The notes: generated by a model from the sequence alone, not told the origin. DNA of 64,000 nt from Candidatus Thorarchaeota archaeon AB_25 (GCA_001940705.1 MEHG01000001.1:25128-89127), one strand, 5' to 3'. Shown: positions 1 to 13,749, counted from the first letter of the stretch. Numbers and translations are program-made.

Positions 1-1057
1 TTACTCTTTTTCCTGCTCGCAGCAGTTCAGATATCAGTAGAGCTAAGATATGGTGTCGCGAATTTTCAGTACCTCCGCATACGAGTGTTCCGGTTTCAAG
101 GTCCTGATGGGACATTCCTGCAGGGGGACCAGTTTGGAGTGTGTCAGGATTGAGTGTAACTCCAAGTTGATAATCATCAGGACGACCTCGAATCGGTGCA
201 ATGAACTGACCGGGAATATTGCTGCCAACCTCAGAAGCTAGCTCACTTCGTAGCTGAACCAACCATTCGGACAATTCTGAACCTGCTGCATAAAACCAAT
301 TACCTTGTTTGTCGATTTCATGCTGCTTCATTCTTTTGTAAAGCGCTCTTGGTTTTAGTCGCACCCATTCTTTCTCTGGAACTGCGGCTCGCACCGCAGA
401 CTCAAACGAGTCACTCTGAGTGGAGTCTCGTATTTGCCCAATAATCGTCGTGTGTGCAATCCAAAGACCACTACGTCGAGTAAGATATGCTTCCAGATTT
501 CCCTTTGATAATCTATTGAGATATCCTTCTAGCAAATCAGAGATCTTTTCTTCATTCATAGCCCGAGCTATCTTTTCTGGTTTCATTGTGACGAAGAGAC
601 CAAATCCATTTGATGTATCAATGGCACGCACCAACGAACCAACATTGCCAAGAAGATTGGGACTTGGCTTACCAAGATCCATTCCGACGGAGTAACGTGA
701 TCCTCCTACACCTTTCACATGTAGATTCTCTGGTGTCACTAGACACGAAAGATCACTTTCTGGGACTTCTTCCCAGGATTCTTGAATGAGTGCACTCATC
801 TCTTTTGTTTCTCGAATTTTCGGGGAAAAGAAATGGATGATCAGTAATACAGCGGAGGTGATTGTGACAATCACTGGAACGTAAAGACCAATCACAATTG
901 AGAGAAATGATGTAAACAGCAGGATTGCTAGTGGACGTCCAACAACACGATTCTCCCATCGAATCTCAGTCCCTGTAGTAATTGTACTCGATGATTCTGA
1001 AAGCTCCTGAAGAGGGTCGACCTCTGGTTTCGTACCAAGAATCAGTCGTTTACCCAA
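1..1057 (-). CDS. Partial CDS (first ~352 codons; 3' end lies beyond the window edge): membrane-anchored protein whose cytoplasmic part ends in a degenerate P-loop-like segment (HerA/VirB4-like NTPase fold suspected, not proven)
   Basis: Not in the supplied track because no stop lies in the window. I checked every minus-strand codon from 1057 down to 2 by hand and found no stop. TTG start at 1057 is preceded by AGGAGGGAG (6-nt spacer) and overlaps the upstream stop by 8 nt. One long hydrophobic stretch: RPLAILLFTSFLSIVIGLYVPVIVTITSAVLLIIHFF. The last residues GTLVCGGTENSRHHILALLISELLRAGKRV look like a Walker-A neighbourhood lacking GK[ST]. Confidence 0.65.
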   Translation of the reverse strand, partial: MGKRLILGTKPEVDPLQELSESSSTITTGTEIRWENRVVGRPLAILLFTSFLSIVIGLYVPVIVTITSAVLLIIHFFSPKIRETKEMSALIQESWEEVPESDLSCLVTPENLHVKGVGGSRYSVGMDLGKPSPNLLGNVGSLVRAIDTSNGFGLFVTMKPEKIARAMNEEKISDLLEGYLNRLSKGNLEAYLTRRSGLWIAHTTIIGQIRDSTQSDSFESAVRAAVPEKEWVRLKPRALYKRMKQHEIDKQGNWFYAAGSELSEWLVQLRSELASEVGSNIPGQFIAPIRGRPDDYQLGVTLNPDTLQTGPPAGMSHQDLETGTLVCGGTENSRHHILALLISELLRAGKRV

Positions 1058-1355
1058 GTTTTACTCCCTCCTGCTTTACAACTAGTCGTTTGGTTGTTCT
1101 TTGGAGCATGTCCAAAACTTGCTTGAGACGGTTGACGTATGCAGGGTCTCCGCCAGCAACAACAATCGAACGGTTCCCTGTCATCAACAGCTCTGGCATA
1201 TTTCCAAGTGTTGGATTTCCGTGAGCAACAAGTAAGGGCTGTCGTACGAGAACGGTCCATTTGTAGCCATGACCTAGTTCAAGAGACCTCATGATATCTT
1301 CTGGTTTGACACCAGGGGGTATTTCCAGACCGGAACGTAATTCATTAGGATACAT
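1050..1355 (-). CDS. Hypothetical protein (101 aa), member of the RadA-like/XPD operon
   Basis: Track ORF. The start overlaps the upstream stop by 11 nt and the stop overlaps the downstream TTG start by 8 nt. No recognisable motif. Confidence 0.5.
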   Translation of the reverse strand: MYPNELRSGLEIPPGVKPEDIMRSLELGHGYKWTVLVRQPLLVAHGNPTLGNMPELLMTGNRSIVVAGGDPAYVNRLKQVLDMLQRTTKRLVVKQEGVKLG

Positions 1356-1944
1356 TGGTCTGCAAACCTCCTGTGTTCACTATCAGAATATCCTGTTTCT
1401 CTGCTCGCTCCACAGGCAAATGTGGGTAAGCTGCTCTCATCGCGCTCTCTAGAATCATGATGTCTGCCATCATGAGTTTCGAAAGTTGTTCTAATCTCAA
1501 TCGAGTGTTCGGCAATCGGAGTGCGCTTCGACGGACTAGCATACCAACTTTCGTCAATTCATTTCCAATTGGGCGTGTTATGAAGAAGACTAGAGTTCCA
1601 CCATTTTCATTCTGAAACCGTGTGTGCATAGCCTGTAGAACTTTGCTTGCAGAATGGCTAAGATCAATCCCTAGTGGTACACTACCAAGTAGTCGCGCAG
1701 CACACAGTTCGACTCGCCAAGGTCTGACAATTGCGACAAATCCTCGTTGTTCATCCCATAGGACATTCGGATCATAGCTTGACCAATAGTCGAGATAGAG
1801 GACTGCAACATAGACTAGAAGTCCTGTTCCAATCAGGGCTAATCCTGTGAGATCATTGGGTGTAATCCAGATTTTCAGGAGTAATGTGGTGGTTATCACT
1901 GAAAGTGCGAGCCACTTTAGTCCAGGCGTGTTAATGATATTCAT
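1345..1944 (-). CDS. Hypothetical membrane protein (199 aa; two N-terminal TM helices plus a soluble C-terminal domain)
   Basis: Track ORF. ATGA overlap with the XPD-like stop (1941-1944). Hydrophobic segments LKWLALSVITTTLLLKIWI and LALIGTGLLVYVAVLYL. Confidence 0.55.
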   Translation of the reverse strand: MNIINTPGLKWLALSVITTTLLLKIWITPNDLTGLALIGTGLLVYVAVLYLDYWSSYDPNVLWDEQRGFVAIVRPWRVELCAARLLGSVPLGIDLSHSASKVLQAMHTRFQNENGGTLVFFITRPIGNELTKVGMLVRRSALRLPNTRLRLEQLSKLMMADIMILESAMRAAYPHLPVERAEKQDILIVNTGGLQTNVS

Positions 1945-3902
1945 TCTGTCAAACCCTCCTGCATCTTTACAAATTGGCTAATCGCAAGTTTGAGCTCCTC
2001 AACATCTCTATACGGCCAGACATCAGATACGATCTCTTCACCGAAGACCTTCAGATGCTTGAGAAATCGATTATCAAGTAAAACTACAACTCCAGTATCA
2101 GTTGGAGACCTTCGTAATCGACCAACCAACTGGGCAACCTGACGTATTGATGGAACAACTGCTGCATAGTAATACCCGGTCCCATTTCCAAACCGAGAGT
2201 CATACCATCGTTGAAGCGCAGCCTGATAGCTTGTGGGTGGACTAAATGGAATTCCCACACCAATGATCAGGTCAATCATACTGGTGCCATCGCTGACTAG
2301 GTCAATACCCTCAGAGAACTTCCCACCATAGACACAGAATACTGCTTGAGGTTTGTCCGAAATAGCTTCAGCAAGTGTTTCTATACGCTCTGCCCTGGTC
2401 TCAACAAGGGTCTCTCGAAAGCCAGTGTCAATTGAGTAACTCATGACCTCGTGTAGCATCTTGTAACTTGGAAACGAGATCAGTGCACTCTTGTTTGCGG
2501 GCATGGTCGTTAATGCCGCACTGATTCTGTCTGCAAGACTACGCCAAAGGTCTGGACCCCGCAACTGGTACTTTGTATTCAGCGTCTTGTCAACGAGCAC
2601 AAGCCTTGTGCCTCTAGGATATGGACTCAAAAGGTCTTCAGAGACCGCTCCTGTCACTCCAAGGAGTCTCGAATAGTAATCAAGAGGTCTCAGAGTGCCG
2701 GACATCAGAACAGCTGATCTCGCACTCCGTAGAATTGGTGCTGTTAGTCCTGATGAGTTCAAGGGTTGAATCATGAGTACAGATTTTGAGGTTGGTGCAT
2801 CTTCCTTCCAAGATTTCTTGTCCTGCAGTGTGACATGCCATCCCTCACTCTTCGATGCCCTCTGAGAAGTGAATAGAAACTCGATGAGTCGGTCCAGCGG
2901 GGTCTCTATTAGTCCTGCATTCTCTGGGTCTCCTAATCCTGGTCTTCCTGCGGAGTGTAGTATCTCGAGGTCATCCTCCTTGACGAATCGAGGTGCAACA
3001 TCCCACTTGTCAAGAACTCGTTCACTTCGATTATACATTCTATCCAGGTTGACCATCATGGTCTCCCAGAGGAAGTCTATGACCTCTCTTATCCATTTGA
3101 GACCGGTCTCTTTAGTGACCAGCTGATGGTTCTCCTTTAACCATCGTAGGTCTTCATTGCTGAGCTGAGATGTTTCTGCATCGAGGACATGGCCAGGGAG
3201 ATTATGTGCTTCATCAACCAGGAGATCAACCTCAGGCAAGGAGATTCCAAGGGATGAAAGGAGTGCATCACGCACTCTTGATCTGAAGATGTAGCTGTAG
3301 GGTCCGATTATGACACGACTGCTCCTGGCACACCAGCGCATCATCTCATATGGACAGACGCCTTCATCAGCAGCCCTTTCTTCGACTCTTTCTCTCGTCA
3401 CGACTCCTGTATTAAGAAGGTCCTCAACGACCTCGCGAAGCACATCACGAATGACAATTCTTCCTTCCGCCTTATTCTTCTGGTAGAAGTTCCAATAGTG
3501 GTGACATGACCCAGTTTTTATCATCTGAGCGCAGGCTCGCATGAATCCTGTAGAGCTCAGAGACTCCATCTGGTGTCGAATTGGACAGACGTGAACTCTC
3601 GAGACCATGGTCGTAGCAGTGAGGTCTGGTTTGACTGAACGAAGTACCTCCAGCTCACTCTCGAAGACCTTAGACTGAGAATGAGTCCTTGTCAAAGCGA
3701 ACAGTCTAGAGGCGTTGTCATGACCTCGAGCAGCCAGATAACCAGAAAGGACTGCAATTGTCTTTCCTACACCGCAATCAGCGGAAAGTAATCCGACAGT
3801 TTTCGTTGAGTACGTGTCAACTGCGAGACCGACTGCCTTCTCCTGATGTGGTCTAGGAGAATATGGAAAGAATTCCATTGTGTCGGTCGTCGCTGCGCTC
3901 AA
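1941..3902 (-). CDS. xpd: XPD/Rad3-family (DinG-like) 4Fe-4S DNA helicase
   Basis: 653-aa ORF. N-terminal FPYSPRPHQ, Walker A DCGVGKT, DEAH box VDEAHNL. Cys residues in VCPIRH, CAQMIKTGSC and GVCPYE lie between motifs I and II, as in the XPD Fe-S domain. The start is either the TTG at 3902 (GAGG upstream, abuts the upstream stop) or the ATG at 3878 (MEFFPYSPRP). Confidence 0.9.
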   Translation of the reverse strand: MSAATTDTMEFFPYSPRPHQEKAVGLAVDTYSTKTVGLLSADCGVGKTIAVLSGYLAARGHDNASRLFALTRTHSQSKVFESELEVLRSVKPDLTATTMVSRVHVCPIRHQMESLSSTGFMRACAQMIKTGSCHHYWNFYQKNKAEGRIVIRDVLREVVEDLLNTGVVTRERVEERAADEGVCPYEMMRWCARSSRVIIGPYSYIFRSRVRDALLSSLGISLPEVDLLVDEAHNLPGHVLDAETSQLSNEDLRWLKENHQLVTKETGLKWIREVIDFLWETMMVNLDRMYNRSERVLDKWDVAPRFVKEDDLEILHSAGRPGLGDPENAGLIETPLDRLIEFLFTSQRASKSEGWHVTLQDKKSWKEDAPTSKSVLMIQPLNSSGLTAPILRSARSAVLMSGTLRPLDYYSRLLGVTGAVSEDLLSPYPRGTRLVLVDKTLNTKYQLRGPDLWRSLADRISAALTTMPANKSALISFPSYKMLHEVMSYSIDTGFRETLVETRAERIETLAEAISDKPQAVFCVYGGKFSEGIDLVSDGTSMIDLIIGVGIPFSPPTSYQAALQRWYDSRFGNGTGYYYAAVVPSIRQVAQLVGRLRRSPTDTGVVVLLDNRFLKHLKVFGEEIVSDVWPYRDVEELKLAISQFVKMQEGLTE

Positions 3903-4526
3903 TCAGTCTGCCTCCACTCTTAGTCGTGCCTCTGCGCGGTAAATTCTGAATTTCAATGAGAAGTACTTGTGTAGCATTCGTTGGAATCTCATCATGAGGT
4001 CAGGAGAACTGAATCCGGTCTCCTTCCTTGCCATCCGTTCAACAATAGGGGGGCTGAACCCATTCTTTCGAGCAGCCTTCCAGAACCATTTCTCAACCTC
4101 CCTCATCGTTGAGAGTAAATGGGAAAGTGAATCTTCGATGATTGACATCAGCTCTTGGACTGACTTCTTTGGGTCTTTTGGAAGCCCAGAGACCTTGATA
4201 CCTGTGGGTAAGTAGACTGCTACCCCTTCCGTACTGTCTAGCTTGACTTCTCTTGGAACACCTTTAGTTCCACGAAGGGTCTCTAGTAGTGAGAGAAGCT
4301 TTGGAAGCTGTGGGAGCATAGGTCTCTCTGAGTCTGTGCTTCTCCAGTCAACTCTGGTCACTACGTAGAGTTCTGGGTCAGGACCTCTCGCACGCTCCAA
4401 CACTGTAATCCTGTGCGCCGATTCTCGCAACAAGAGGTTCACCAGGTTAATCATTGAGCTACGAGGTATGTTGGGTGGAGTCGTTGGTACCCATGTCGAC
4501 TGGTCGGGATTATCAGTACTAGACAT
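3903..4526 (-). CDS. Hypothetical protein (207 aa)
   Basis: Track ORF with an 8-nt overlap with the upstream gene; its stop abuts the XPD-like start. No motif recognised. Confidence 0.55.
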   Translation of the reverse strand: MSSTDNPDQSTWVPTTPPNIPRSSMINLVNLLLRESAHRITVLERARGPDPELYVVTRVDWRSTDSERPMLPQLPKLLSLLETLRGTKGVPREVKLDSTEGVAVYLPTGIKVSGLPKDPKKSVQELMSIIEDSLSHLLSTMREVEKWFWKAARKNGFSPPIVERMARKETGFSSPDLMMRFQRMLHKYFSLKFRIYRAEARLRVEAD

Positions 4527-4974
4527 CAGTCCACGCCTCCTTTGTCAGGGATACAGCAACACCATTATTGCAGATCGCTCCCTCAGACTCGAGTGTGTCC
4601 ATGAACTTCATGGCACGACCTAGGTCTATTCCCGCCTCACTACATTCCCTCATCACATTCTCGATGGAAACTGCGCGGCCTCTGTTCATATCTATAAGTG
4701 ATTCAATGATATTGAACACTCGTCGTTTGATCCCAATTCCTCGACCATTTCCACCTTGTTTCACCTTGGAGATCTGCGACTCGATAACGAGCTCGCGGAC
4801 ACAGGACTGGGCTTCCTGGACTGTCACAGCATAGAGAGTGCCAGCCTCATGCAGGATGATTCCTTGGCAGAGGCTGCAGCGAGAGGCTTCATCTTCAGTT
4901 TCTACGTGGGAATAGCCAATATTCCTGCAGTGATTGCATCGGTATACTCTGAACATCCCTCGCATACGGTTCAC
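4519..4974 (-). CDS. Zn-ribbon (CxxC...CxxC) plus C-terminal winged-helix-like DNA-binding protein
   Basis: YRCNHCRN...x17...RCSLCQG gives four Cys in a ribbon spacing. The C-terminal RVFNIIESLIDMNRGRAVSIENVMRECSEAGIDLGRAMKFMDTLESEGAI looks like a wHTH. The GTG start shares nt 4974 with the RadA-like stop; alternative ATGs at 4965 and 4956. Confidence 0.55.
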   Translation of the reverse strand: MNRMRGMFRVYRCNHCRNIGYSHVETEDEASRCSLCQGIILHEAGTLYAVTVQEAQSCVRELVIESQISKVKQGGNGRGIGIKRRVFNIIESLIDMNRGRAVSIENVMRECSEAGIDLGRAMKFMDTLESEGAICNNGVAVSLTKEAWTDV

Positions 4975-6050
4975 TAACTCTCACCCACCACGGTCTCGGC
5001 CTCGACTACAATCTCTTCTTCAACCTCGGGAGTGTCCTCCTTCACCTCGAGACCCTCACCTTGTTTTTCGAAGTATTCCTTTATGTCAGGTTCAATCTCT
5101 TTCTTCGTCTTCGCGTCTGGATACATACCACCCCAACCAACGATGAGCTCTGCATCAAACTCAGGAAGTCCAGCGTTATCCTGCAACTCGATCTTTCGGA
5201 TATCGCCCTTGGTTCTTCGTGTGTAGAATCTGTAATCGCTAGCGTGTGATATGATATGGCCTCCCACTGGAGCATTCGGGTTTCCTCCATAGGTGGAGAT
5301 CTTAGCCATGACTTGGTTGGAATAAGCGAAAATGCAGTCGGTCGCTGTGGACGTTCGGCGCATCTGGTTGAGGAGGTTGTTCATGTCCTGTTGCCTGATT
5401 CTCATGTTTTCCAGACCTGTGTACTCTGCGCGGAAGAGACCTGTGAACGAGTCAATGACCACTAGTTTGTAATCTTGCTCGGCACACATCTGGGGTATTG
5501 TCTCAAAGATCTCTGTTATCTGGCCAGATAGGACGACCTCTGCACGACCGATGTTTCCAAGGGTCACGTCTGGATCTAGTCCGTGTCTAATTGCATTGGC
5601 CCTGATGGTACGTGGTTTGAAGCTGGACTCAGTGTCCAACCAGAGAACCCTTCCTTCGAGACCTCCCTTCTCAAGTGGGAGCTGAGCTGTCACGGCTAAT
5701 TGACTGACCCACTGAGTTTTTCCGCCTCTTGCTGGGCCGAAAAATTCTACTATGCTTCCGACCTCGATTCCGCCACGAAGGGCCTGATCGACCTTTGGGA
5801 TTCCAGTGGTGAGTCGGGGCTTAGTCGCCATCTCTTGCTCTATCTCGAGACCTGACCTGAACCCGAACTTACCCACGAGGAGCCGAGCGTTCTTGATGAC
5901 CTTCTCGCATGTACCTTCACCCATCTTAGTCTTCTTTAGTAATTCAACTGGGTTCTGGACAGCTAGAAGTTCAGCTGTTGTGACGTAAACTTCCCTCAGT
6001 TTCTTTGCGACTGCGGGACCAATACCCTGAACAGCCTCGAGTTCTGTCAT
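4974..6050 (-). CDS. radA: RadA/Rad51-type recombinase homolog, divergent, with an acidic C-terminal extension
   Basis: N-terminal HhH-like segment (VQGIGPAVAKKLRE). Walker A FFGPARGGKTQ, Walker B KLVVIDSF. Core similarity to archaeal RadA throughout (LWLDTESSFKPRTI, SNQVMAK..GGNPNAPVGGHIISHAS). About 45 extra C-terminal residues rich in E/V. Confidence 0.85.
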   Translation of the reverse strand: MTELEAVQGIGPAVAKKLREVYVTTAELLAVQNPVELLKKTKMGEGTCEKVIKNARLLVGKFGFRSGLEIEQEMATKPRLTTGIPKVDQALRGGIEVGSIVEFFGPARGGKTQWVSQLAVTAQLPLEKGGLEGRVLWLDTESSFKPRTIRANAIRHGLDPDVTLGNIGRAEVVLSGQITEIFETIPQMCAEQDYKLVVIDSFTGLFRAEYTGLENMRIRQQDMNNLLNQMRRTSTATDCIFAYSNQVMAKISTYGGNPNAPVGGHIISHASDYRFYTRRTKGDIRKIELQDNAGLPEFDAELIVGWGGMYPDAKTKKEIEPDIKEYFEKQGEGLEVKEDTPEVEEEIVVEAETVVGES

Positions 6051-6514
6051 GGAATCTCCTCCTCTTCAAGCCGCTTAGAAACTGGACCCTCCAATGGGAC
6101 CAGTCTGAGGAATGCTGGCAGGTCAAACATTGGGACGACGATCTCACCGTTAGACCGCAATAGTGTAAGACCATTTAGAAGTTGGATGACCTCTTCCTGT
6201 CGTGCTAGTGGTACTCGAAAGTACAGCCCTTCAGGGGTGACCTCACCAGTTATGCTGATATAGCCACCAAGAGCGTCATATGCGGACCCAACTAGACCGT
6301 CACCGTCTTGTGGGGCTGTTCCAGGATCTGCAGGTACAACATCTCCCACCAATCGAATCATCTGGAAGATGTCATCATAGAACTCTTCCCAGAGCCAACT
6401 GGGACTTCTGTTCTCTGCGACCCGTAATCCTGCTGCTGCACCCGCGAGCCACGCCACTTGGGGCATGGTGAAAGGTGCACGAGGAACACTTTGAATAAAA
6501 TCGTCTACTTGCAT
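6047..6514 (-). CDS. Hypothetical protein (155 aa)
   Basis: Track ORF. ATG abuts the upstream TAG (6514-6517) and there is an ATGA overlap with the RadA-like start (6047-6050). Confidence 0.55.
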   Translation of the reverse strand: MQVDDFIQSVPRAPFTMPQVAWLAGAAAGLRVAENRSPSWLWEEFYDDIFQMIRLVGDVVPADPGTAPQDGDGLVGSAYDALGGYISITGEVTPEGLYFRVPLARQEEVIQLLNGLTLLRSNGEIVVPMFDLPAFLRLVPLEGPVSKRLEEEEIP

Positions 6515-7267
6515 CTAAATTTCTACCTCCTCACCGATCTGTACTCCGCTAATGACCTCTGGTAGTGGTTGAAGATCCTCCAACCATTCCTTGAGGCCGC
6601 GTATCATGGGGTCTCTCAACTGGCCATTGCTAAGTACTGAAGCTAAGAGAGCCTTTGATGCTACCACAACTCTTTGCAGTGCCAACTCACGTTCTGAGAA
6701 TGTCATTGGACGGAACCATGGCATCGTCACAAATCCAGATTCTCCAGCAAGGTATTCTCGCCAGTCAATCTCCCAGTTCGCGACAAGGGGATCACGCCTA
6801 ACTATTCCAAGTAGGACATCGGTCCACTCAGTCCAACGCTTCATGAAGTTGCGAACCGACGCAGACAGAGCCTTCAGACTGCCACCCTTTCTCTCGGACA
6901 GTCCTTCAAAAACAAGAACCAGTCTGGTCGCGTCATCCTTGGCAATCGCACTGAGTGCAAGTCCAGTGTTGATGGATGTGGTCATGAGTGCTAGTCCAGG
7001 GACAATCCCTGGAATGTCGCAAGGGAGATACCTGCCTTTCCGCTCTGGTTCAAACTTTTGGAACGGAGAGAGGATATCACTCCTTAGTCCAACAATCATG
7101 ATCAGACTTGCATCTCTGTCTGGTCCGTGATATCGAAGCCGAGCTTTTAGGACAGTCCGGTCGGTGTTACTGAACATCACTTGAAGCGGCAGGGTGACGT
7201 CTATCATTCCCGTACCCTTCGCTTCTCTGTGAGCGGCCATCAGTTGATCTTCGAGTTGTGTTAGCAT
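6515..7267 (-). CDS. Hypothetical protein (250 aa), first gene of the operon
   Basis: Track ORF preceded by ~520 bp of non-coding DNA. No motif recognised. Confidence 0.55.
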   Translation of the reverse strand: MLTQLEDQLMAAHREAKGTGMIDVTLPLQVMFSNTDRTVLKARLRYHGPDRDASLIMIVGLRSDILSPFQKFEPERKGRYLPCDIPGIVPGLALMTTSINTGLALSAIAKDDATRLVLVFEGLSERKGGSLKALSASVRNFMKRWTEWTDVLLGIVRRDPLVANWEIDWREYLAGESGFVTMPWFRPMTFSERELALQRVVVASKALLASVLSNGQLRDPMIRGLKEWLEDLQPLPEVISGVQIGEEVEI

Positions 7268-7278
7268 ACCTTTGCACC

Positions 7279-7310
7279 GTACGTATGCAACGTATACGTA
7301 GACCTATACG
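7279..7310 (-). promoter_or_regulatory. Clustered CGTATA repeats and a 10-nt palindrome immediately upstream of the operon start (candidate operator/promoter element)
   Basis: GTACGTATGCAACGTATACGTAGACCTATACG. CGTAT(G/A) at 7282 and 7291, inverted TATACG at 7305, perfect palindrome ACGTATACGT at 7290-7299. Lies 12-43 nt upstream of the ATG at 7267. Confidence 0.25.
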
Positions 7311-7555
7311 AAAGTTGGGTCTATGATGAAGAAGGCATCATAACCCTTATTTTCCATAATGAAGGTCTATCAAAATTAGCGGTCAGATTATTGAATATCT
7401 TGAGCTAGAAAATCTCGTTTAGTCGACTCATTTCTATTATTCAGTATACCCTTAGGTCCTTTTCTGCAACAGAAGTAATAGACGAACAACAAAAATCGAA
7501 CACTAATACACGAAGTTCTGTGGGACTCACAAAGGATGGAGTACTAGCTGGGCTC

Positions 7556-7726
7556 GATTGCACATTTGACCCTTGATGATTGAAAGAAAATGTGGAGGAA
7601 GCCCTAAAAGGTCAAAGAAGCGTTATCCGCCCGTATAATCTCGACGCTGAGGTTATCTATATCCCCTAATTGTCCTACTCGACTCTTAGCTTGTAGGGTC
7701 ACTGGACAGAGAACACTTTGCTTTCC
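7556..7726 (+). promoter_or_regulatory. Conserved ~170-nt leader element, copy A, upstream of GH3 paralog 1
   Basis: Aligns without gaps to 11916-12085, roughly two thirds identical by hand count. Includes the identical 20-mer GATTGCACATTTGACCCTTG. Confidence 0.5.
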
Positions 7727-7790
7727 TTTTCCATGTTTATGCCATGGGATGCAGGAGTTGTATCCTGAATCCTAAGGAGGCAAAAGCAAG

Positions 7791-9332
7791 ATGTCAATTA
7801 TGAGAAAGCTTGTGTCTGTAGTGGCCAAGCGCAAGATGAAGGAGATCGAATATGTACTAGATCATCCGATTGAGGAATCAAACAAGTTACTAACAGACTT
7901 ACTCACTAAACATCAGGATTCAGTCTTAGGACGAAGGTATGGATTTGATTCCATCACATCTCCTGAGCAGTTTGCTGAGAGAGTTCCTCTTACAGACTAT
8001 AAGAAGATGAAACCTATCATTGATGAGGTGTACAAGAATCCTACTGGGAAGATAATGACTTCAGAACCAGTGATCTGGTATCTGACTACGTCAGGATCGA
8101 CTGGAAATCAGAAACAGATGCCGTTGACCAAGTCTGGATTAAAGACGGCCTCGGTCGGTGGTTCCCGAATGTGGATGGGGTATATGAATCAACATCCTGA
8201 CAACTCGAAGATACTCGATGGGACGATGATAATGTTCGGAGCGCCATCCAACACAGGCGAGATAAATGGAGTACCAACGGGGTATGGTTCGGGAGTGTAT
8301 GTGGGCAATCAGAACAGGATCTTCAAACGACTCATCAAACCAGGTGAGGATGTATTTTGTATTGAGGACATGGAGGAGAAGATGAAGGCCTACGCTCTGT
8401 GCACAGCAACGAACGATGTGACAGCATTACAGGGCATAGCAACCCTAAACCTTGCGTTCATGCGTAGAATGGAGGAACAGTATGGTCCTTGGCTCCTTGA
8501 ACAGCTAAAAGGAACAAAGCATGAACGAAAAATCCGTGAATCGCTGGACTCTGATGGACGGCTCGATGTAGCAAAGTTTTGGCCCAATCTCAGACTATTC
8601 GTGAGTGGAGGAATCGATGTAGACCCATACAGAAAGTGGGTAAAAACTGCGTTACCAAATTCAACTGTCTGGGAAGGCTATGCCGCCTCAGAGGGATATC
8701 TTGGAAGTCAGATTCTCCCCGAAAATGGTCTTCAACTAATGCCGGACTTGAATTATCTAGAGTTCATTCACGAGCGCGAGATTGAAAGTGAAACCCCCAG
8801 GGTAATTCCGCTCTCAGATGTGAAGAAAGGATCACGTTACGAGCTTGTGATGTCCAATCATAATGGTTGGTACCGATACAGATTGGGTGATATGGTGACT
8901 TTCACAAGAACAGATCCATACACAATCAGGCATATCTCTCGCAAAGGAGGGATAGTAAGTCTGGCTGGTGAAAAACTGAGTGATGCACATGTGATCAATG
9001 CGATGTCTGAAGCAAGTAAGGTGACCGGAGCACAGGTCATGGATTACTCTGTAGTAGGGGTTGCTGAGGGAAACATTCCTTACTATGTTATCGCAGCATT
9101 GTTCAATGACGATGTGGACTCTCGGGAATTCGTTGATGCCTTTGAGGAAGCAATTGGAGAAGTGAATTGGGAATTCATCAACAGTCAGGGAATGGGGGCT
9201 CTTGGTCCAACTATTCTACGAAAGATGGTAAAATCCAGACATGACGAGGTCGTGAAGGAAACCCACCTTCAAGCTAAACCAGTTCCTTTGACAGTGGATA
9301 AGGCTGTCTTTGAGGTCTGTGAGGCGACATAG
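7791..9332 (+). CDS. GH3-family acyl-acid amido synthetase-like adenylating enzyme (paralog 1)
   Basis: 513 aa. The TTSGSTGNQKQMPLT motif corresponds to the GH3 SSGTSxGxxKxxP nucleotide-binding motif. Overall length and C-terminal layout fit GH3. AAGGAGG lies 9 nt upstream of the ATG. Confidence 0.8.
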   Translation: MSIMRKLVSVVAKRKMKEIEYVLDHPIEESNKLLTDLLTKHQDSVLGRRYGFDSITSPEQFAERVPLTDYKKMKPIIDEVYKNPTGKIMTSEPVIWYLTTSGSTGNQKQMPLTKSGLKTASVGGSRMWMGYMNQHPDNSKILDGTMIMFGAPSNTGEINGVPTGYGSGVYVGNQNRIFKRLIKPGEDVFCIEDMEEKMKAYALCTATNDVTALQGIATLNLAFMRRMEEQYGPWLLEQLKGTKHERKIRESLDSDGRLDVAKFWPNLRLFVSGGIDVDPYRKWVKTALPNSTVWEGYAASEGYLGSQILPENGLQLMPDLNYLEFIHEREIESETPRVIPLSDVKKGSRYELVMSNHNGWYRYRLGDMVTFTRTDPYTIRHISRKGGIVSLAGEKLSDAHVINAMSEASKVTGAQVMDYSVVGVAEGNIPYYVIAALFNDDVDSREFVDAFEEAIGEVNWEFINSQGMGALGPTILRKMVKSRHDEVVKETHLQAKPVPLTVDKAVFEVCEAT

Positions 9333-9342
9333 ATTGGATTCC

Positions 9343-10230
9343 ATGAATGAAACCCAAACTGCTCATTCTGTACAACATGCAAGGGTGGTGGGCAATCACT
9401 ACCAATGCATGACTGACAGAAACATTGGAATGATTAATGCTGATGAGCAGAACAGAATCGCAAACACAGTGATAGCTCAGGCAGGTGTCGGTGGCAACGC
9501 AGACATTGTCATAACTCTCGCACAGATGGGGTTTCAGCACTTCAGGTTAGCTGATCCTGATATCTATGAACTCTCGAATCTGAACCGTCAGCTAGGTGCT
9601 AGAGTTTCGACATTGGAACGAAACAAGGCCCGAGTGGTTACAGAAGACGTGCTGGAAATCAATCCAGAAGCCGAAATCAAAGTGTATCCCGATGGCATCA
9701 CCTGGGACAATGTTGAGGAGTTCGTGGATGGAGCAGATGTCATAATCGATGGACTCGATTTGTCAGTCATGCATCTCAGAAAGAGAATGTTTGATCTGGC
9801 TAGGGTTCGCGGCATACCTGTCATCACATGTCCTGTCATTGGATGGGGTGCAGGTATTGCTATCTTCGATCCAGAAAGGAGCCCCTCGTTTGGAGACTTC
9901 TTTGGAAAGATTCCTCAAGATCAGAAATCAGACGAGTGGCGGAGGTTCATCAGCAACTATGCTCTTCACTTCATCTCATCCAGACCAACAGGGATTGATG
10001 TCACCCTCGGTATGAAACGGACGTTGGAAGGAAGACCCCCTGCAGTTGCTGCACCTTGCAGACTGAATGCCGCTCTAGTACCAACCGCAATCTTTGGCTA
10101 TCTGTTTGACAAGGGAAATCTCCCCTTAGTACCAACCACACTCTACGTGGATATCCTTGGCGGAAAGATTTCTAGCACTGGACCAAAGAAGCGATGGTTT
10201 GTCAAGAAAGCCATTGATGTTTTGTCCTGA
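9343..10230 (+). CDS. ThiF/MoeB/HesA (E1-like) adenylyltransferase family protein
   Basis: Rossmann motif AQAGVGGNAD, arginine-finger motif ELSNLNRQ, DGLD. No CxxC zinc motifs. The track ORF begins at the TTG at 9310, inside the GH3 gene; I prefer the ATG at 9343, 10 nt after the GH3 stop. Confidence 0.8.
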   Translation: MNETQTAHSVQHARVVGNHYQCMTDRNIGMINADEQNRIANTVIAQAGVGGNADIVITLAQMGFQHFRLADPDIYELSNLNRQLGARVSTLERNKARVVTEDVLEINPEAEIKVYPDGITWDNVEEFVDGADVIIDGLDLSVMHLRKRMFDLARVRGIPVITCPVIGWGAGIAIFDPERSPSFGDFFGKIPQDQKSDEWRRFISNYALHFISSRPTGIDVTLGMKRTLEGRPPAVAAPCRLNAALVPTAIFGYLFDKGNLPLVPTTLYVDILGGKISSTGPKKRWFVKKAIDVLS

Positions 10231-12210: not shown

Positions 12211-13749
12211 ATGGGAGTGATAAGCAAGCTCATTCCACTGTTGGCAAAGAGGAAGGCAAAGACGATTGCCGAGATCCTGAACAATCCAATCAGTCTGACT
12301 GAGGGCAAACTCATGTCGATACTTGAAACTCATAGTCAAACCAGGTTTGGAAAGGACAATAGCTATGCCAACATCCGGACACCTGAGCAATTTAGTGAAA
12401 CAGTCCCACTTCATGATTATCATTCAATGAAGCCCTATTGGGACCAGATTCATGTGAATCCTGAACAACCAATCATCACAGCAGACCCTGTGATATGGTA
12501 TGTCCAGAGTAGTGGATCTACTGGAAAACCGAAAGCCCTACCTCTAAGTGCGGCTGGTCTGAGCGACTACACTGGAGGGAGCATGTTGTTCCTCATGTCA
12601 TTCATCAATGCCAAGAAGGGAAACAACAAGATCTTCGATGGAACGATGCTCACCTTTGCTGCACCTGCAAAGATGGGTGAGATCAATGGAGTACCCCTCG
12701 GGTACATGACTGGAATCTCTCGTGAGATGATCGCCAACGCATTGCTCAAGAAGCTCATCAAACCGGGAGAGGATATCTTCAACATGACAAAGATGGGCGA
12801 GAAGCTCTGGGCATATGCAAAATATGCGGTCACAGAGAACATCACCTCTCTGGGTGGTATCACCACTCTCATCTTCGCATTCATTCGCCGTATGCAGAAT
12901 GAGTACGGACCCAGTCTGCTTGAGGAGTTCAAAGGCACAAAGCATGAGGCTAGGATCAGGGAGGCACTCAACGATGAAGGGACCCTTGACCTGAATGTCC
13001 TCTGGCCCAACCTGATAATGGTCGGTGCCACTGGTGTTGATGCGGATCCTTACAAGCCGTGGTTGAAAAGCACACTTCCGAAAGCGACTCTCTGGGATAA
13101 CTACGCTGGTTCTGAGGGTCTCTATGGAACTACACTCTTGAAGAACACAGACAATGGTATCCAGCTGTTACCACACATCAACTACTTGGAATTTATCCCT
13201 GAGTCTGACATCGAGAAGGAGGACCCAACAGCTATCCCCCTAGTAGATGTAAAGAAAGGCCAAAGGTACGAGTTGGTCCTCACTAACCTGATGGGCTACA
13301 CCCGATACAGGATTGGTGATGTGATGACTTTCAAGGACACAGACCCATATTCTGTATACAGGATTGGACGCAAGGGTAAGTCTGTCAACCTGACAGGTGA
13401 GAAGCTGTCAGACGCCCATGTCACAGAGGGTGTTGCTTATGCAACCAAGCAGACAGGAGCGGAGATACTGGACTACAACGTCTATGGAACAATTGGAGAT
13501 GGTCAGGCAAACTATATCATAGCAGCCATGTTCAACAACGATGTGAATCCAGTAGAGTTCGCACAAGCATTTGATGAGTGCGTCGGGAAAAACAACGGTG
13601 AGTTCAAGTATGTCCAGGAGTTTGGATCACTGGGACCCACCATCGTGAAGAAGGTAACCAAGTCTCACACCGAGAGCATCATCGAACGAACTCACATCCA
13701 GGCAAAGGCTGAACCTTTGACTGCCGAAGTTATTGAAGGAAGTGCATAG
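12211..13749 (+). CDS. GH3-family acyl-acid amido synthetase-like adenylating enzyme (paralog 2)
   Basis: 512 aa. QSSGSTGKPKALPLS motif. About half of the residues are identical to paralog 1 by eye. GGGAGGGGTG lies upstream of the ATG. Confidence 0.8.
   Translation: MGVISKLIPLLAKRKAKTIAEILNNPISLTEGKLMSILETHSQTRFGKDNSYANIRTPEQFSETVPLHDYHSMKPYWDQIHVNPEQPIITADPVIWYVQSSGSTGKPKALPLSAAGLSDYTGGSMLFLMSFINAKKGNNKIFDGTMLTFAAPAKMGEINGVPLGYMTGISREMIANALLKKLIKPGEDIFNMTKMGEKLWAYAKYAVTENITSLGGITTLIFAFIRRMQNEYGPSLLEEFKGTKHEARIREALNDEGTLDLNVLWPNLIMVGATGVDADPYKPWLKSTLPKATLWDNYAGSEGLYGTTLLKNTDNGIQLLPHINYLEFIPESDIEKEDPTAIPLVDVKKGQRYELVLTNLMGYTRYRIGDVMTFKDTDPYSVYRIGRKGKSVNLTGEKLSDAHVTEGVAYATKQTGAEILDYNVYGTIGDGQANYIIAAMFNNDVNPVEFAQAFDECVGKNNGEFKYVQEFGSLGPTIVKKVTKSHTESIIERTHIQAKAEPLTAEVIEGSA

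Follow-up and report, generated by a model that had tools for sequence, protein, structure and literature searches.

Fifteen co-directional genes, g1 to g15, form a conserved operon of Thorarchaeota in which a RadA/Rad51-type recombinase, two helicases, two RadB-like proteins and a FEN1-like nuclease are encoded together with four membrane proteins. Eight of these genes and the first part of a ninth lie within the window analysed here, a 64,000-nt stretch of Candidatus Thorarchaeota archaeon AB_25 (MEHG01000001.1:25128-89127), whose positions are used for all coordinates given without a locus label. The encoded proteins may well act as one membrane-anchored homologous-recombination machine, possibly coupled to the uptake or exchange of DNA, a reading that is held with somewhat less than even confidence.

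Nine overlapping genes are part of a fifteen-gene operon

Nine minus-strand open reading frames (ORFs) run from position 7267 to the window edge, exactly where the original prediction had placed them, and each junction abuts or overlaps in the manner it described (Table 1). The g1/g2 junction reads tagATG, an ATGA is found at g2/g3 and g6/g7, g5 and g6 abut, and the remaining overlaps comprise a single shared base (g3/g4), 8 nt (g4/g5 and g8/g9) or 11 nt (g7/g8). A ribosome-site motif of the GGAGG/GGTGG type is located 6-10 nt ahead of each start from g2 to g9. Overlapping or abutting genes combined with such motifs are what would be expected of genes whose translation is coupled on a single mRNA. 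The nine predicted genes and their coupling stand, while the predicted extent of the operon does not, the unit having 15 genes.

A metagenome contig carrying an identical copy of g7 extends g9 to at least 763 codons. The homologues of g9 (n = 125, all annotated as hypothetical and all from Thorarchaeota metagenome-assembled genomes, MAGs) are ~784 aa in length, and the same 15 co-directional genes were found on three contigs whose g9 homologues are 96%, 43% and 40% identical. Leftward extension of the locus completed g9 (784 codons) and added the six further co-directional genes g10 to g15.

Table 1. Genes of the operon and adjoining features, by window position or, where marked, by position in L006.
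Feature	Position	Strand	Description
g1	6515-7267	-	250 aa, ORFan, first operon gene
g2	6047-6514	-	155 aa, ORFan
g3	4974-6050	-	358 aa, RadA/Rad51-type recombinase
g4	4519-4974	-	151 aa, GTG start, zinc ribbon and winged-helix-like
g5	3903-4526	-	207 aa, ORFan, without transmembrane segment
g6	1941-3902	-	653 aa, TTG start, XPD/Rad3-type helicase
g7	1345-1944	-	199 aa, membrane protein, ORFan
g8	1050-1355	-	101 aa, ORFan, without transmembrane segment
g9	1-1057	-	first 352 of 784 codons, open at window edge
g10	beyond window (L006 12352-14547)		731 aa, Hel308-like helicase
g11	beyond window		550 aa, membrane ORFan
g12	beyond window		246 aa, RadB/KaiC-like ATPase, intact P-loop
g13	beyond window		321 aa, ORFan with three transmembrane segments
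g14	beyond window		237 aa, RadB-like, without Walker A
g15	beyond window		330 aa, FEN1-like nuclease, C-terminal PIP box
Upstream non-coding region	7268-7790	.	523 bp, between g1 and divergent GH3 gene
GH3-family adenylating enzyme	7791-9332	+	divergent to operon
ThiF/E1-like gene	9310-10230	+	follows GH3 gene
Second GH3 paralogue	12211-13749	+	45% identical, 3 kb further on
Convergent ORFan	L006 19571-21607	-	~680 aa, after g15
ORF	L006 21616-22212	+	~198 aa, after the convergent ORFan

Gene order is conserved across the sampled Thorarchaeota

When one genome per species (GTDB) was scanned with the g9 alignment, 46 distinct loci were recovered. Almost all of them are labelled Thorarchaeota or Promethearchaeota; the remainder comprise one labelled Hermodarchaeota, several archaeal MAGs and the short Desulfuromonadales contig described below. 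Gene order across these loci was read from a BLAST/hidden Markov model table of their ORFs. The g1-to-g15 order is retained wherever the contig is long enough, usually with the same flanking genes, and three exceptions were found. In one lineage (L039 and L042) an extra RadA-like gene occupies the position of g2; g2 was undetected in L005 and L050; and the complete chromosome CP070761.1 (L035) is without g1 to g3 at the locus (L035 1-6200), where FtsX/ABC-transporter and DUF166 genes lie upstream instead and g4 is shortened. The order therefore does recur outside the source genome, and the conserved multi-subunit unit that had been proposed is borne out across Thorarchaeota. Given that the same genes follow one another in the same order in 46 species-level loci, the arrangement is not due to chance.

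The cluster is single-copy and occurs in the same chromosomal context in every Thorarchaeota genome returned by the g9 scan. No relative of g9 was found in IMG/VR viral contigs, and the window contains no tRNA gene and no compositional break. From this fixed synteny, and without viral-contig relatives, a tRNA gene or a compositional break, it follows that the cluster is a vertically inherited chromosomal operon.

A core of the operon recurs in other Asgard lineages

An exhaustive profile search with the g9 alignment gave 145 cluster representatives, and the named members outside Thorarchaeota belong to Loki-, Hel-, Baldr- and Freyrarchaeia. The neighbourhoods of these relatives repeat parts of the Thorarchaeota operon. 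In a sister lineage (L054), a GH3 gene is followed by g1-to-g12-like genes that include the RadA-like and XPD-like ones. The Helarchaeota locus (L058) carries genes for a RadA-like protein, a Zn-ribbon protein, a RadB-like protein, an ORFan, a Hel308-like helicase and a g9-like protein, then two small genes and a convergent FEN1-like gene, while a Lokiarchaeota contig (L057) has g9-like, FEN1-like and Hel308-like genes within 12 kb. In Baldrarchaeia (L055) a RadB-like gene, an ORFan, a Hel308-like gene and two small genes are found with a split g9, and for Freyrarchaeia only a g9 homologue is on record. The recurring core thus consists of g9-like, Hel308-like, RadA/RadB-like ATPase and FEN1-like genes with small ORFans, and has its most complete, single-operon form in Thorarchaeota. 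The XPD-like gene was seen only in Thorarchaeota and the L054 sister lineage.

g9 combines a VirB4/HerA/TrwB fold with a degenerate P-loop

The g9 protein is laid out as a conserved N-terminal peptide, a transmembrane (TM) hairpin, an N-domain, a VirB4/HerA/TrwB-fold domain and a C-terminal winged helix. The AlphaFold2 model (predicted local distance difference test, pLDDT, 72.6) has a long TM hairpin, the N-domain, a P-loop-type alpha/beta domain and the C-terminal winged helix. When the model was searched with Foldseek, the best match was TrwK/VirB4 of the R388 type IV secretion system (T4SS; 3e-11), followed by HerA, TrwB/VirD4, DndH and TdpAB (E values from 3e-11 to about 1e-8). The winged helix is backed by PadR/HTH_34 matches in distant homologues.

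Where relatives carry the Walker A motif GxxxxGK[S/T], g9 has C/V-G-G-x4-R with an invariant arginine (R334), and its Walker B motif is reduced to an aspartate (D528). The GGxxxxR form is seen in the Thor, Loki, Hel, Baldr and Freyr members, and given that all members of the family share it, loss of the P-loop lysine is ancient. Because the Walker A lysine has been lost family-wide, g9 is unlikely to be a translocation motor and is probably a scaffold. Ahead of the TM hairpin, the N-terminus of g9 (residues 8-15; 1014-1036) carries an invariant G-x2-P-x2-D-P, followed by a nearly invariant L, the motif being present in 21/21 of the aligned Thorarchaeota sequences over which it was counted. This N-terminal peptide has the look of a short docking motif.

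Four of the proteins, g7, g9, g11 and g13, retain hydrophobic TM segments across their orthologues and are membrane proteins on that basis. The membrane tethering proposed from the TM segments of the 199-aa protein (g7) and the last gene of the window (g9) is therefore conserved, and extends to g11 and g13. In g7, one or two N-terminal hydrophobic segments, of which that at residues 32-50 is kept in 28/30 orthologues, precede a soluble part of ~145 aa. Two to three TM segments are present in g11 and three in g13. The AlphaFold2 model of g11 combines a beta domain at the N-terminus with a bundle of helices and an acidic, disordered tail, and searches of PDB and BFVD with it gave no significant match. 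A nuclease fold for g11, NurA-like or other, was considered and is unsupported.

The recombinase, helicases and nuclease keep their catalytic residues and are divergent

The assignment of g3 to the RadA/Rad51 fold, made in the original prediction, is upheld by Pfam, NCBIfam and PDB matches. An N-terminal helix-hairpin-helix (HhH) domain (Pfam HHH_5, 1.7e-6) is coupled to a RecA-type core (Pfam Rad51, 1.5e-55) with intact Walker A (GPARGGKT) and Walker B motifs, in which residues G105, G110, K111, T112 and D200 are invariant among orthologues. The L1/L2 loop regions align with those of Pyrococcus furiosus RadA. At the FxxA position the linker reads GF(R/K)SG, with F64 invariant and glycine replacing alanine, and an extra acidic tail of ~50 aa is present at the C-terminus. 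The best PDB match is P. furiosus RadA (196 bits), with matches extending to RAD51B and XRCC3, and a homologue search with g3 gave only g3 orthologues among the 120 matches listed. The additional RadA-like gene of L039 (4145-5143) and L042 (4031-5143) encodes an HhH domain and a Walker A motif of sequence GKSSSGKT and is ~30% identical to g3, so that two RadA-type genes stand in tandem there.

In orthologue alignments the P-loop of g12 is intact, whereas g14 is without Walker A. Both fall far below the RadB cut-off of 172 bits (27 bits for g12 and 47 bits for g14). One full recombinase accompanied by short RecA-core proteins is likewise found in Rad55-Rad57, in BCDX2/CX3 and in archaeal RadB/aRadC, and the pairing of a P-loop protein (g12) with one lacking it (g14) resembles heterodimeric mediators. 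Unlike those Rad51/RadA paralogue mediators, g12 and g14 lie well under the RadB threshold and are encoded with membrane proteins.

The XPD-type Fe-S helicase and the Zn-ribbon plus winged-helix protein recognised in the original prediction (g6 and g4) were also confirmed. g6 matches Pfam DEAD_2 and Helicase_C_2, and its best PDB match, at only 124 bits, is archaeal XPD. Across 40 orthologues the Walker A residues G44, G46, K47 and T48, the DEAH box (D230, E231, A232 and H233) and the 4Fe-4S cysteines C106, C124, C133 and C183 are invariant. A match of g6 to the DinG-type model of PADLOC (2e-80) raised the possibility of a link to type IV CRISPR systems, which was dropped: no other type IV Cas model was matched among the nine window proteins, and no Cas domain was found in Pfam/NCBIfam scans of all 15 proteins. 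The DinG-type model appears merely to capture XPD-like helicases. In g4 the zinc-ribbon cysteines C13, C16, C33 and C36 are invariant, and residues 84-136 show a weak but repeated similarity to the C-terminal winged helix of MCM (2m45, E = 0.038; Mcm7; 4fdg; NCBIfam MCM).

Only residues 7-396 of g10 align with Hel308 models, the PDB match to Hel308 reaching 245 bits over the N-terminal half. Motif II reads DEIQ, with an invariant glutamine, in place of DEIH, and the divergent C-terminal half contains a conserved CxC(x10)CxH zinc-type motif (residues 537-552). Catalytic residues are invariant in the orthologue alignment of g10, as they are in those of g3, g6, g12 and g15.

In g15 all seven catalytic carboxylates are invariant (D29, D78, E150, E152, D171, D173 and D222), and the C-terminal QxTLEQW[ILV] aligns with the PIP box of Archaeoglobus fulgidus FEN1. 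Gaps of 7 and 5 residues lie opposite KNVYVDVKPEIIILES of A. fulgidus FEN1, and the beta-hairpin region is consequently missing. The score of g15 against FEN1 model TIGR03674 (117 bits, cut-off 352) indicates that it is not a canonical Fen1-1. Feng et al. 2025 (PMC12680538) use loss of the beta-hairpin to define the divergent Asgard Fen1-2, and state that canonical Fen1-1 occurs throughout the Asgard archaea. By its sequence g15 fits this published extra copy, with which it shares a long branch, the beta-hairpin deletion and the PIP box. The cluster-linked FEN1-like genes of Loki- and Helarchaeota are divergent to a similar degree, and the present gene neighbourhood is not described in the main text of PMC12680538.

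The remaining proteins define families without recognisable relatives. Window proteins were scanned singly against Pfam, NCBIfam, PADLOC and PHROGs. As single sequences g1, g2, g5, g7, g8 and g13 had no family match, and as sets of 12-15 orthologues each (83 in total) they gave nothing consistent against Pfam; profile searches against PDB sequences with g1 (13 orthologues), g5 and g11 also returned nothing. The earlier statement that the five complete ORFans match nothing thus holds for Pfam, NCBIfam, PADLOC, PHROGs and PDB sequence profiles.

A possible membrane-anchored recombination machine

In the machine proposed here, g9, probably a ring like its structural relatives, would form with g7, g11 and g13 a non-catalytic platform that keeps DNA at the membrane, the winged helix of g9 holding the DNA. 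The helicases g6 and g10 would drive translocation and unwinding and generate single strands; by their family relatives, XPD-type helicases are of 5'-3' and Hel308-type helicases of 3'-5' polarity. A strand-exchange filament would be formed by g3, with g12 and g14 assisting as Rad51-paralogue-like mediators, and g15, recruited by PCNA, would trim 5' flaps following strand invasion and repair synthesis.

By analogy with competence and with the archaeal Ced and Ted systems, such a machine could take in or exchange DNA across the membrane and integrate it directly, a role that is possible but doubtful. Uptake or exchange is slightly favoured over membrane-tethered repair of forks or breaks, because it would otherwise be difficult to account for four dedicated membrane proteins and an architecture like that of VirB3-VirB4; confidence is low because the channel and pilin are missing and the P-loop is dead. 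A broader claim, that Asgard archaea possess a hitherto unrecognised membrane machine which moves DNA across the membrane or holds it there and feeds a dedicated recombination pathway with its own RadA, Rad51-paralogue-like mediators, two helicases and a eukaryote-like FEN1 (Fen1-2), and that its core (an inactive VirB4/HerA-like ring, a Hel308-like helicase, RadA/RadB-like ATPases and Fen1-2) is shared by Thor-, Loki-, Hel- and Baldrarchaeia, is put forward tentatively and is at present rather unlikely.

Several points weigh against a membrane-anchored recombination machine coupled to DNA transport. The sole T4SS-like component, g9, cannot, judged by its P-loop sequence, be a translocation ATPase, and no polytopic channel (VirB6-, CedA- or ComEC-like), pilin or surface component was recognised in the 15 proteins. 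The PIP-box nuclease and the Hel308-like helicase suit replication-fork repair equally well. The RadA module (g1 to g3) is separable from the rest, given its absence from the locus in CP070761.1. Many g3 orthologues are annotated as RadA by NCBI and JGI, and no other cluster protein is as highly conserved as g3, both of which count against its status as a paralogue. Finally, it is the operon structure, and only that, which points to a physical complex.

The alternative that survives best, though it too is rather unlikely, is a membrane-tethered form of housekeeping repair without DNA transport, in which the restart of broken or stalled replication forks, or chromosome resolution and segregation, would take place at a membrane attachment site with g9 as an FtsK-like anchor that has lost its motor activity. 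The presence of the operon in all sampled Thorarchaeota, its fixed synteny and its vertical divergence are in keeping with such a role, as is the PIP box of g15, which implies PCNA-coupled synthesis. Members of the Hel308 family work at stalled forks. The domain order of g9 (TM, HerA/FtsK-superfamily body, winged helix) parallels that of FtsK, and a degenerate P-loop is no obstacle for a pure anchor. However, the best folds for g9 are VirB4, HerA and TrwB, with no FtsK among the 50 best matches, no known archaeal repair pathway requires four membrane proteins, and the use of paralogues over housekeeping enzymes would be left unexplained.

Extra paralogues or core enzymes

The recognisable enzymes score below the cut-offs for the corresponding orthologues. 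For g3 the deficit is borderline with RadA model PRK04301 (258.2 bits, cut-off 259, 0.8 bits under) and larger with TIGR02236 (231.4 bits, cut-off 361). g6 reaches 166.3 bits against rad3 (cut-off 246.95), and g10 reaches 279 bits against Hel308 model NF040935 (cut-off 1200) and 367 bits against PRK02362 (cut-off 887); the FEN1 score of g15 is given above. Sequence identity of g3 is 38% to P. furiosus RadA and 35% to human RAD51, against 49% between P. furiosus RadA and human RAD51 (the human sequence having been entered by hand). On its sequence, such divergence would be odd for an orthologue in a close relative of eukaryotes. Given these sub-threshold scores, the divergence of g3 and the fit of g15 to Fen1-2, the enzymes are most likely extra paralogues that act beside housekeeping copies. 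The suggestion of a dedicated rather than housekeeping system is in this way supported indirectly, through the RadA-, XPD-, Hel308- and FEN1-like scores and g15. Heimdall-, Njord- and Gerdarchaeia and, with less robust support, Lokiarchaeia are reported to have a second clade of RadA (PMC12722695).

Were g3, g6 and g10 instead the sole, fast-evolving RadA, XPD and Hel308 of the organism, the operon would be a core recombination and excision-repair locus, with the membrane genes unrelated to it. The full RadA architecture of g3, its near-threshold PRK04301 score and the RadA annotation and top conservation noted above agree with such a locus, as does the report that profile searches failed to detect Hel308 in many Asgard genomes (PMC10946056). 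It is nevertheless improbable: g3 is farther from P. furiosus RadA and human RAD51 than these are from each other, g15 fits the extra copy Fen1-2 where Fen1-1 is reported Asgard-wide (PMC12680538), one lineage has two RadA-like genes in its cluster while CP070761.1 has no g1 to g3 at the locus, and such a locus would not explain why four conserved membrane proteins are so tightly coupled to it.

Defence and mobile-element origins

An anti-mobile-element defence role had been offered as an alternative in the original prediction. In such a system the helicases, nuclease and HerA-like ring would sense viral or plasmid DNA at the membrane and destroy it, as in SIR2-HerA, Hachiman or Zorya. This is quite improbable. 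The DinG-type PADLOC match of g6, the resemblance of g9 to HerA of SIR2-HerA complexes, a core shared by g10 with HamB (the Hel308-like protein of Hachiman), and the long branches of the components, as expected of arms-race genes, could be read in its favour. Yet among the nine window proteins scanned with PADLOC only g6 matches, the other eight having no match below E = 0.01, and no system with several matching components was found. Universal presence in single copy with fixed context and order, together with absence from IMG/VR viral contigs, is a poor fit to patchy mobile defence islands. Moreover, the set includes enzymes that construct DNA instead of degrading it, namely a recombinase with its mediators and a flap nuclease that binds PCNA, and nothing resembling a toxin-type effector is apparent.

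Descent from a conjugative element or provirus, the operon being a remnant or domesticated replication and recombination module with a VirB4-like transfer ATPase, would account for the VirB4-like fold with its N-terminal TM hairpin (as in VirB3-VirB4 fusions) and for the PHROG matches of the recombinase and helicase, but is highly improbable and was rejected on the synteny, composition, tRNA and viral-contig results, since integrase, attachment-site repeats, tRNA gene, capsid and other transfer genes are all missing, composition is not anomalous, the flanks are identical in distant species, and the degenerate P-loop is ancient and family-wide.

Comparison with known systems

The Ced system of Sulfolobales and the Ted system of Thermoproteales likewise pair a membrane-bound VirB4/HerA-fold protein with small membrane proteins, and are linked to homologous recombination, chromosomally encoded and lineage-wide. 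Ted loci of Thermoproteales carry Rad50 and HerA-like genes (PMC9905601), providing a precedent for repair genes beside DNA-import genes. The analogy to these systems drawn in the original prediction gains some substance from the VirB4/HerA/TrwB fold of g9, which it shares with the Ced/Ted ATPase. The translocation part of the analogy fares less well. While g9 matches the VirB4 fold (3e-11), it is without the catalytic P-loop lysine, and its likeness to CedB/TedB is at the level of the fold (VirB4, HerA), with no detectable sequence similarity. No channel of 6-7 TM segments like VirB6 or CedA was recognised, the cluster proteins having at most three TM-like segments and the 83 orthologues scanned giving no Pfam match, nor was a two-TM pilin like VirB2 or CedA1, g8 being without TM segments and g7 having a soluble domain of ~145 aa. 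In contrast to Ced/Ted, a recombinase, two helicases and a nuclease are present here in the same operon, and the host is an Asgard archaeon.

In the archaeal herA-mre11-rad50-nurA locus a HerA-superfamily protein is likewise encoded with nuclease and helicase functions feeding RadA-dependent recombination, and the present arrangement is akin to such HerA-centred recombination and repair clusters. No Mre11, Rad50 or NurA domain was found in any of the 15 proteins, however. Here the HerA-like protein is membrane-anchored, P-loop-degenerate and equipped with a winged helix, the nuclease is of the FEN1 type, and XPD-like, Hel308-like, RadA-like and two RadB-like proteins are added. The locus had been described as neither herA-mre11-rad50-nurA nor an XPB-Bax1 pair, and Pfam/NCBIfam scans of the 15 proteins agree.

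In bacterial competence, the ComEC channel, the ComFA helicase/translocase, DprA and RecA couple uptake to recombination. The analogy is functional only, comprising membrane proteins, a superfamily 2 helicase motor and a recombinase with its loader; the membrane parts are not homologous. No published description of the cluster was found in the literature, and it would be a categorically new system if DNA translocation were confirmed.

Upstream region and neighbouring genes

The non-coding DNA ahead of the first gene, put at about 520 bp in the original prediction, measures 523 bp. It contains no ORF of 60 aa or more and presumably represents the promoter and leader of the operon. Short DNA blocks identical between species are found within it (TTGCAGAAAWGGACC, ATAATCYGRCCGCT and TTATGATNCCTTCTT), and GTACGGTGCAAWAG, also identical between species, directly precedes the ATG of g1. 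These blocks are candidate promoter or operator elements, judged by their conservation. An RNA element upstream of g1 was considered and dropped, as an Rfam scan of positions 1-8000 gave no match.

The divergent GH3 gene is syntenic in most Thorarchaeota loci and is followed by the ThiF/E1-like gene and, further on, by the second GH3 paralogue (Table 1). The GH3 and E1-like enzymes beside a repair-type operon may form a conjugation or tagging pair. On the other side, the convergent ~680-aa ORFan and the ~198-aa ORF that follow g15 are present in most loci reaching that far; neither has a family match, and both may belong to the system. Proteins of 1337 to ~2600 aa with prenyltransferase/alpha-2-macroglobulin-like and Big domains adjoin the cluster in three distant lineages (L005 22277-end, L054 16621-end and L055 553-4566). 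A 2.1-kb contig labelled Desulfuromonadales (L043, MAXT01000013.1) carries g9 and g10 that are 47-60% identical to the Thorarchaeota proteins, and is probably a mis-binned archaeal contig.

Implications for Asgard recombination

One conserved, co-translated unit brings together, beside four membrane proteins, a probably second RadA-type recombinase, two Rad51-paralogue-like proteins, two helicases and the FEN1 variant proposed to be closest to eukaryotic FEN1. It defines a new Asgard-wide family of VirB4/HerA-fold proteins in which arginine replaces the P-loop lysine, as well as about eight protein families without known relatives. Even if this were simply the core locus, a membrane-linked operon of 15 genes for recombination would be unusual in archaea. 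If its proteins act together, they would constitute a dedicated recombination pathway beside the housekeeping one, and Fen1-2, possibly along with the additional RadA copies of Asgard archaea, would gain a genomic context and a function open to testing. A link to DNA transport, if true, would make the system an archaeal counterpart of recombination-coupled competence or conjugation in the lineage closest to eukaryotes. How homologous recombination and DNA exchange work in Asgard archaea is directly relevant to the origins of eukaryotic recombination, repair and possibly sex.

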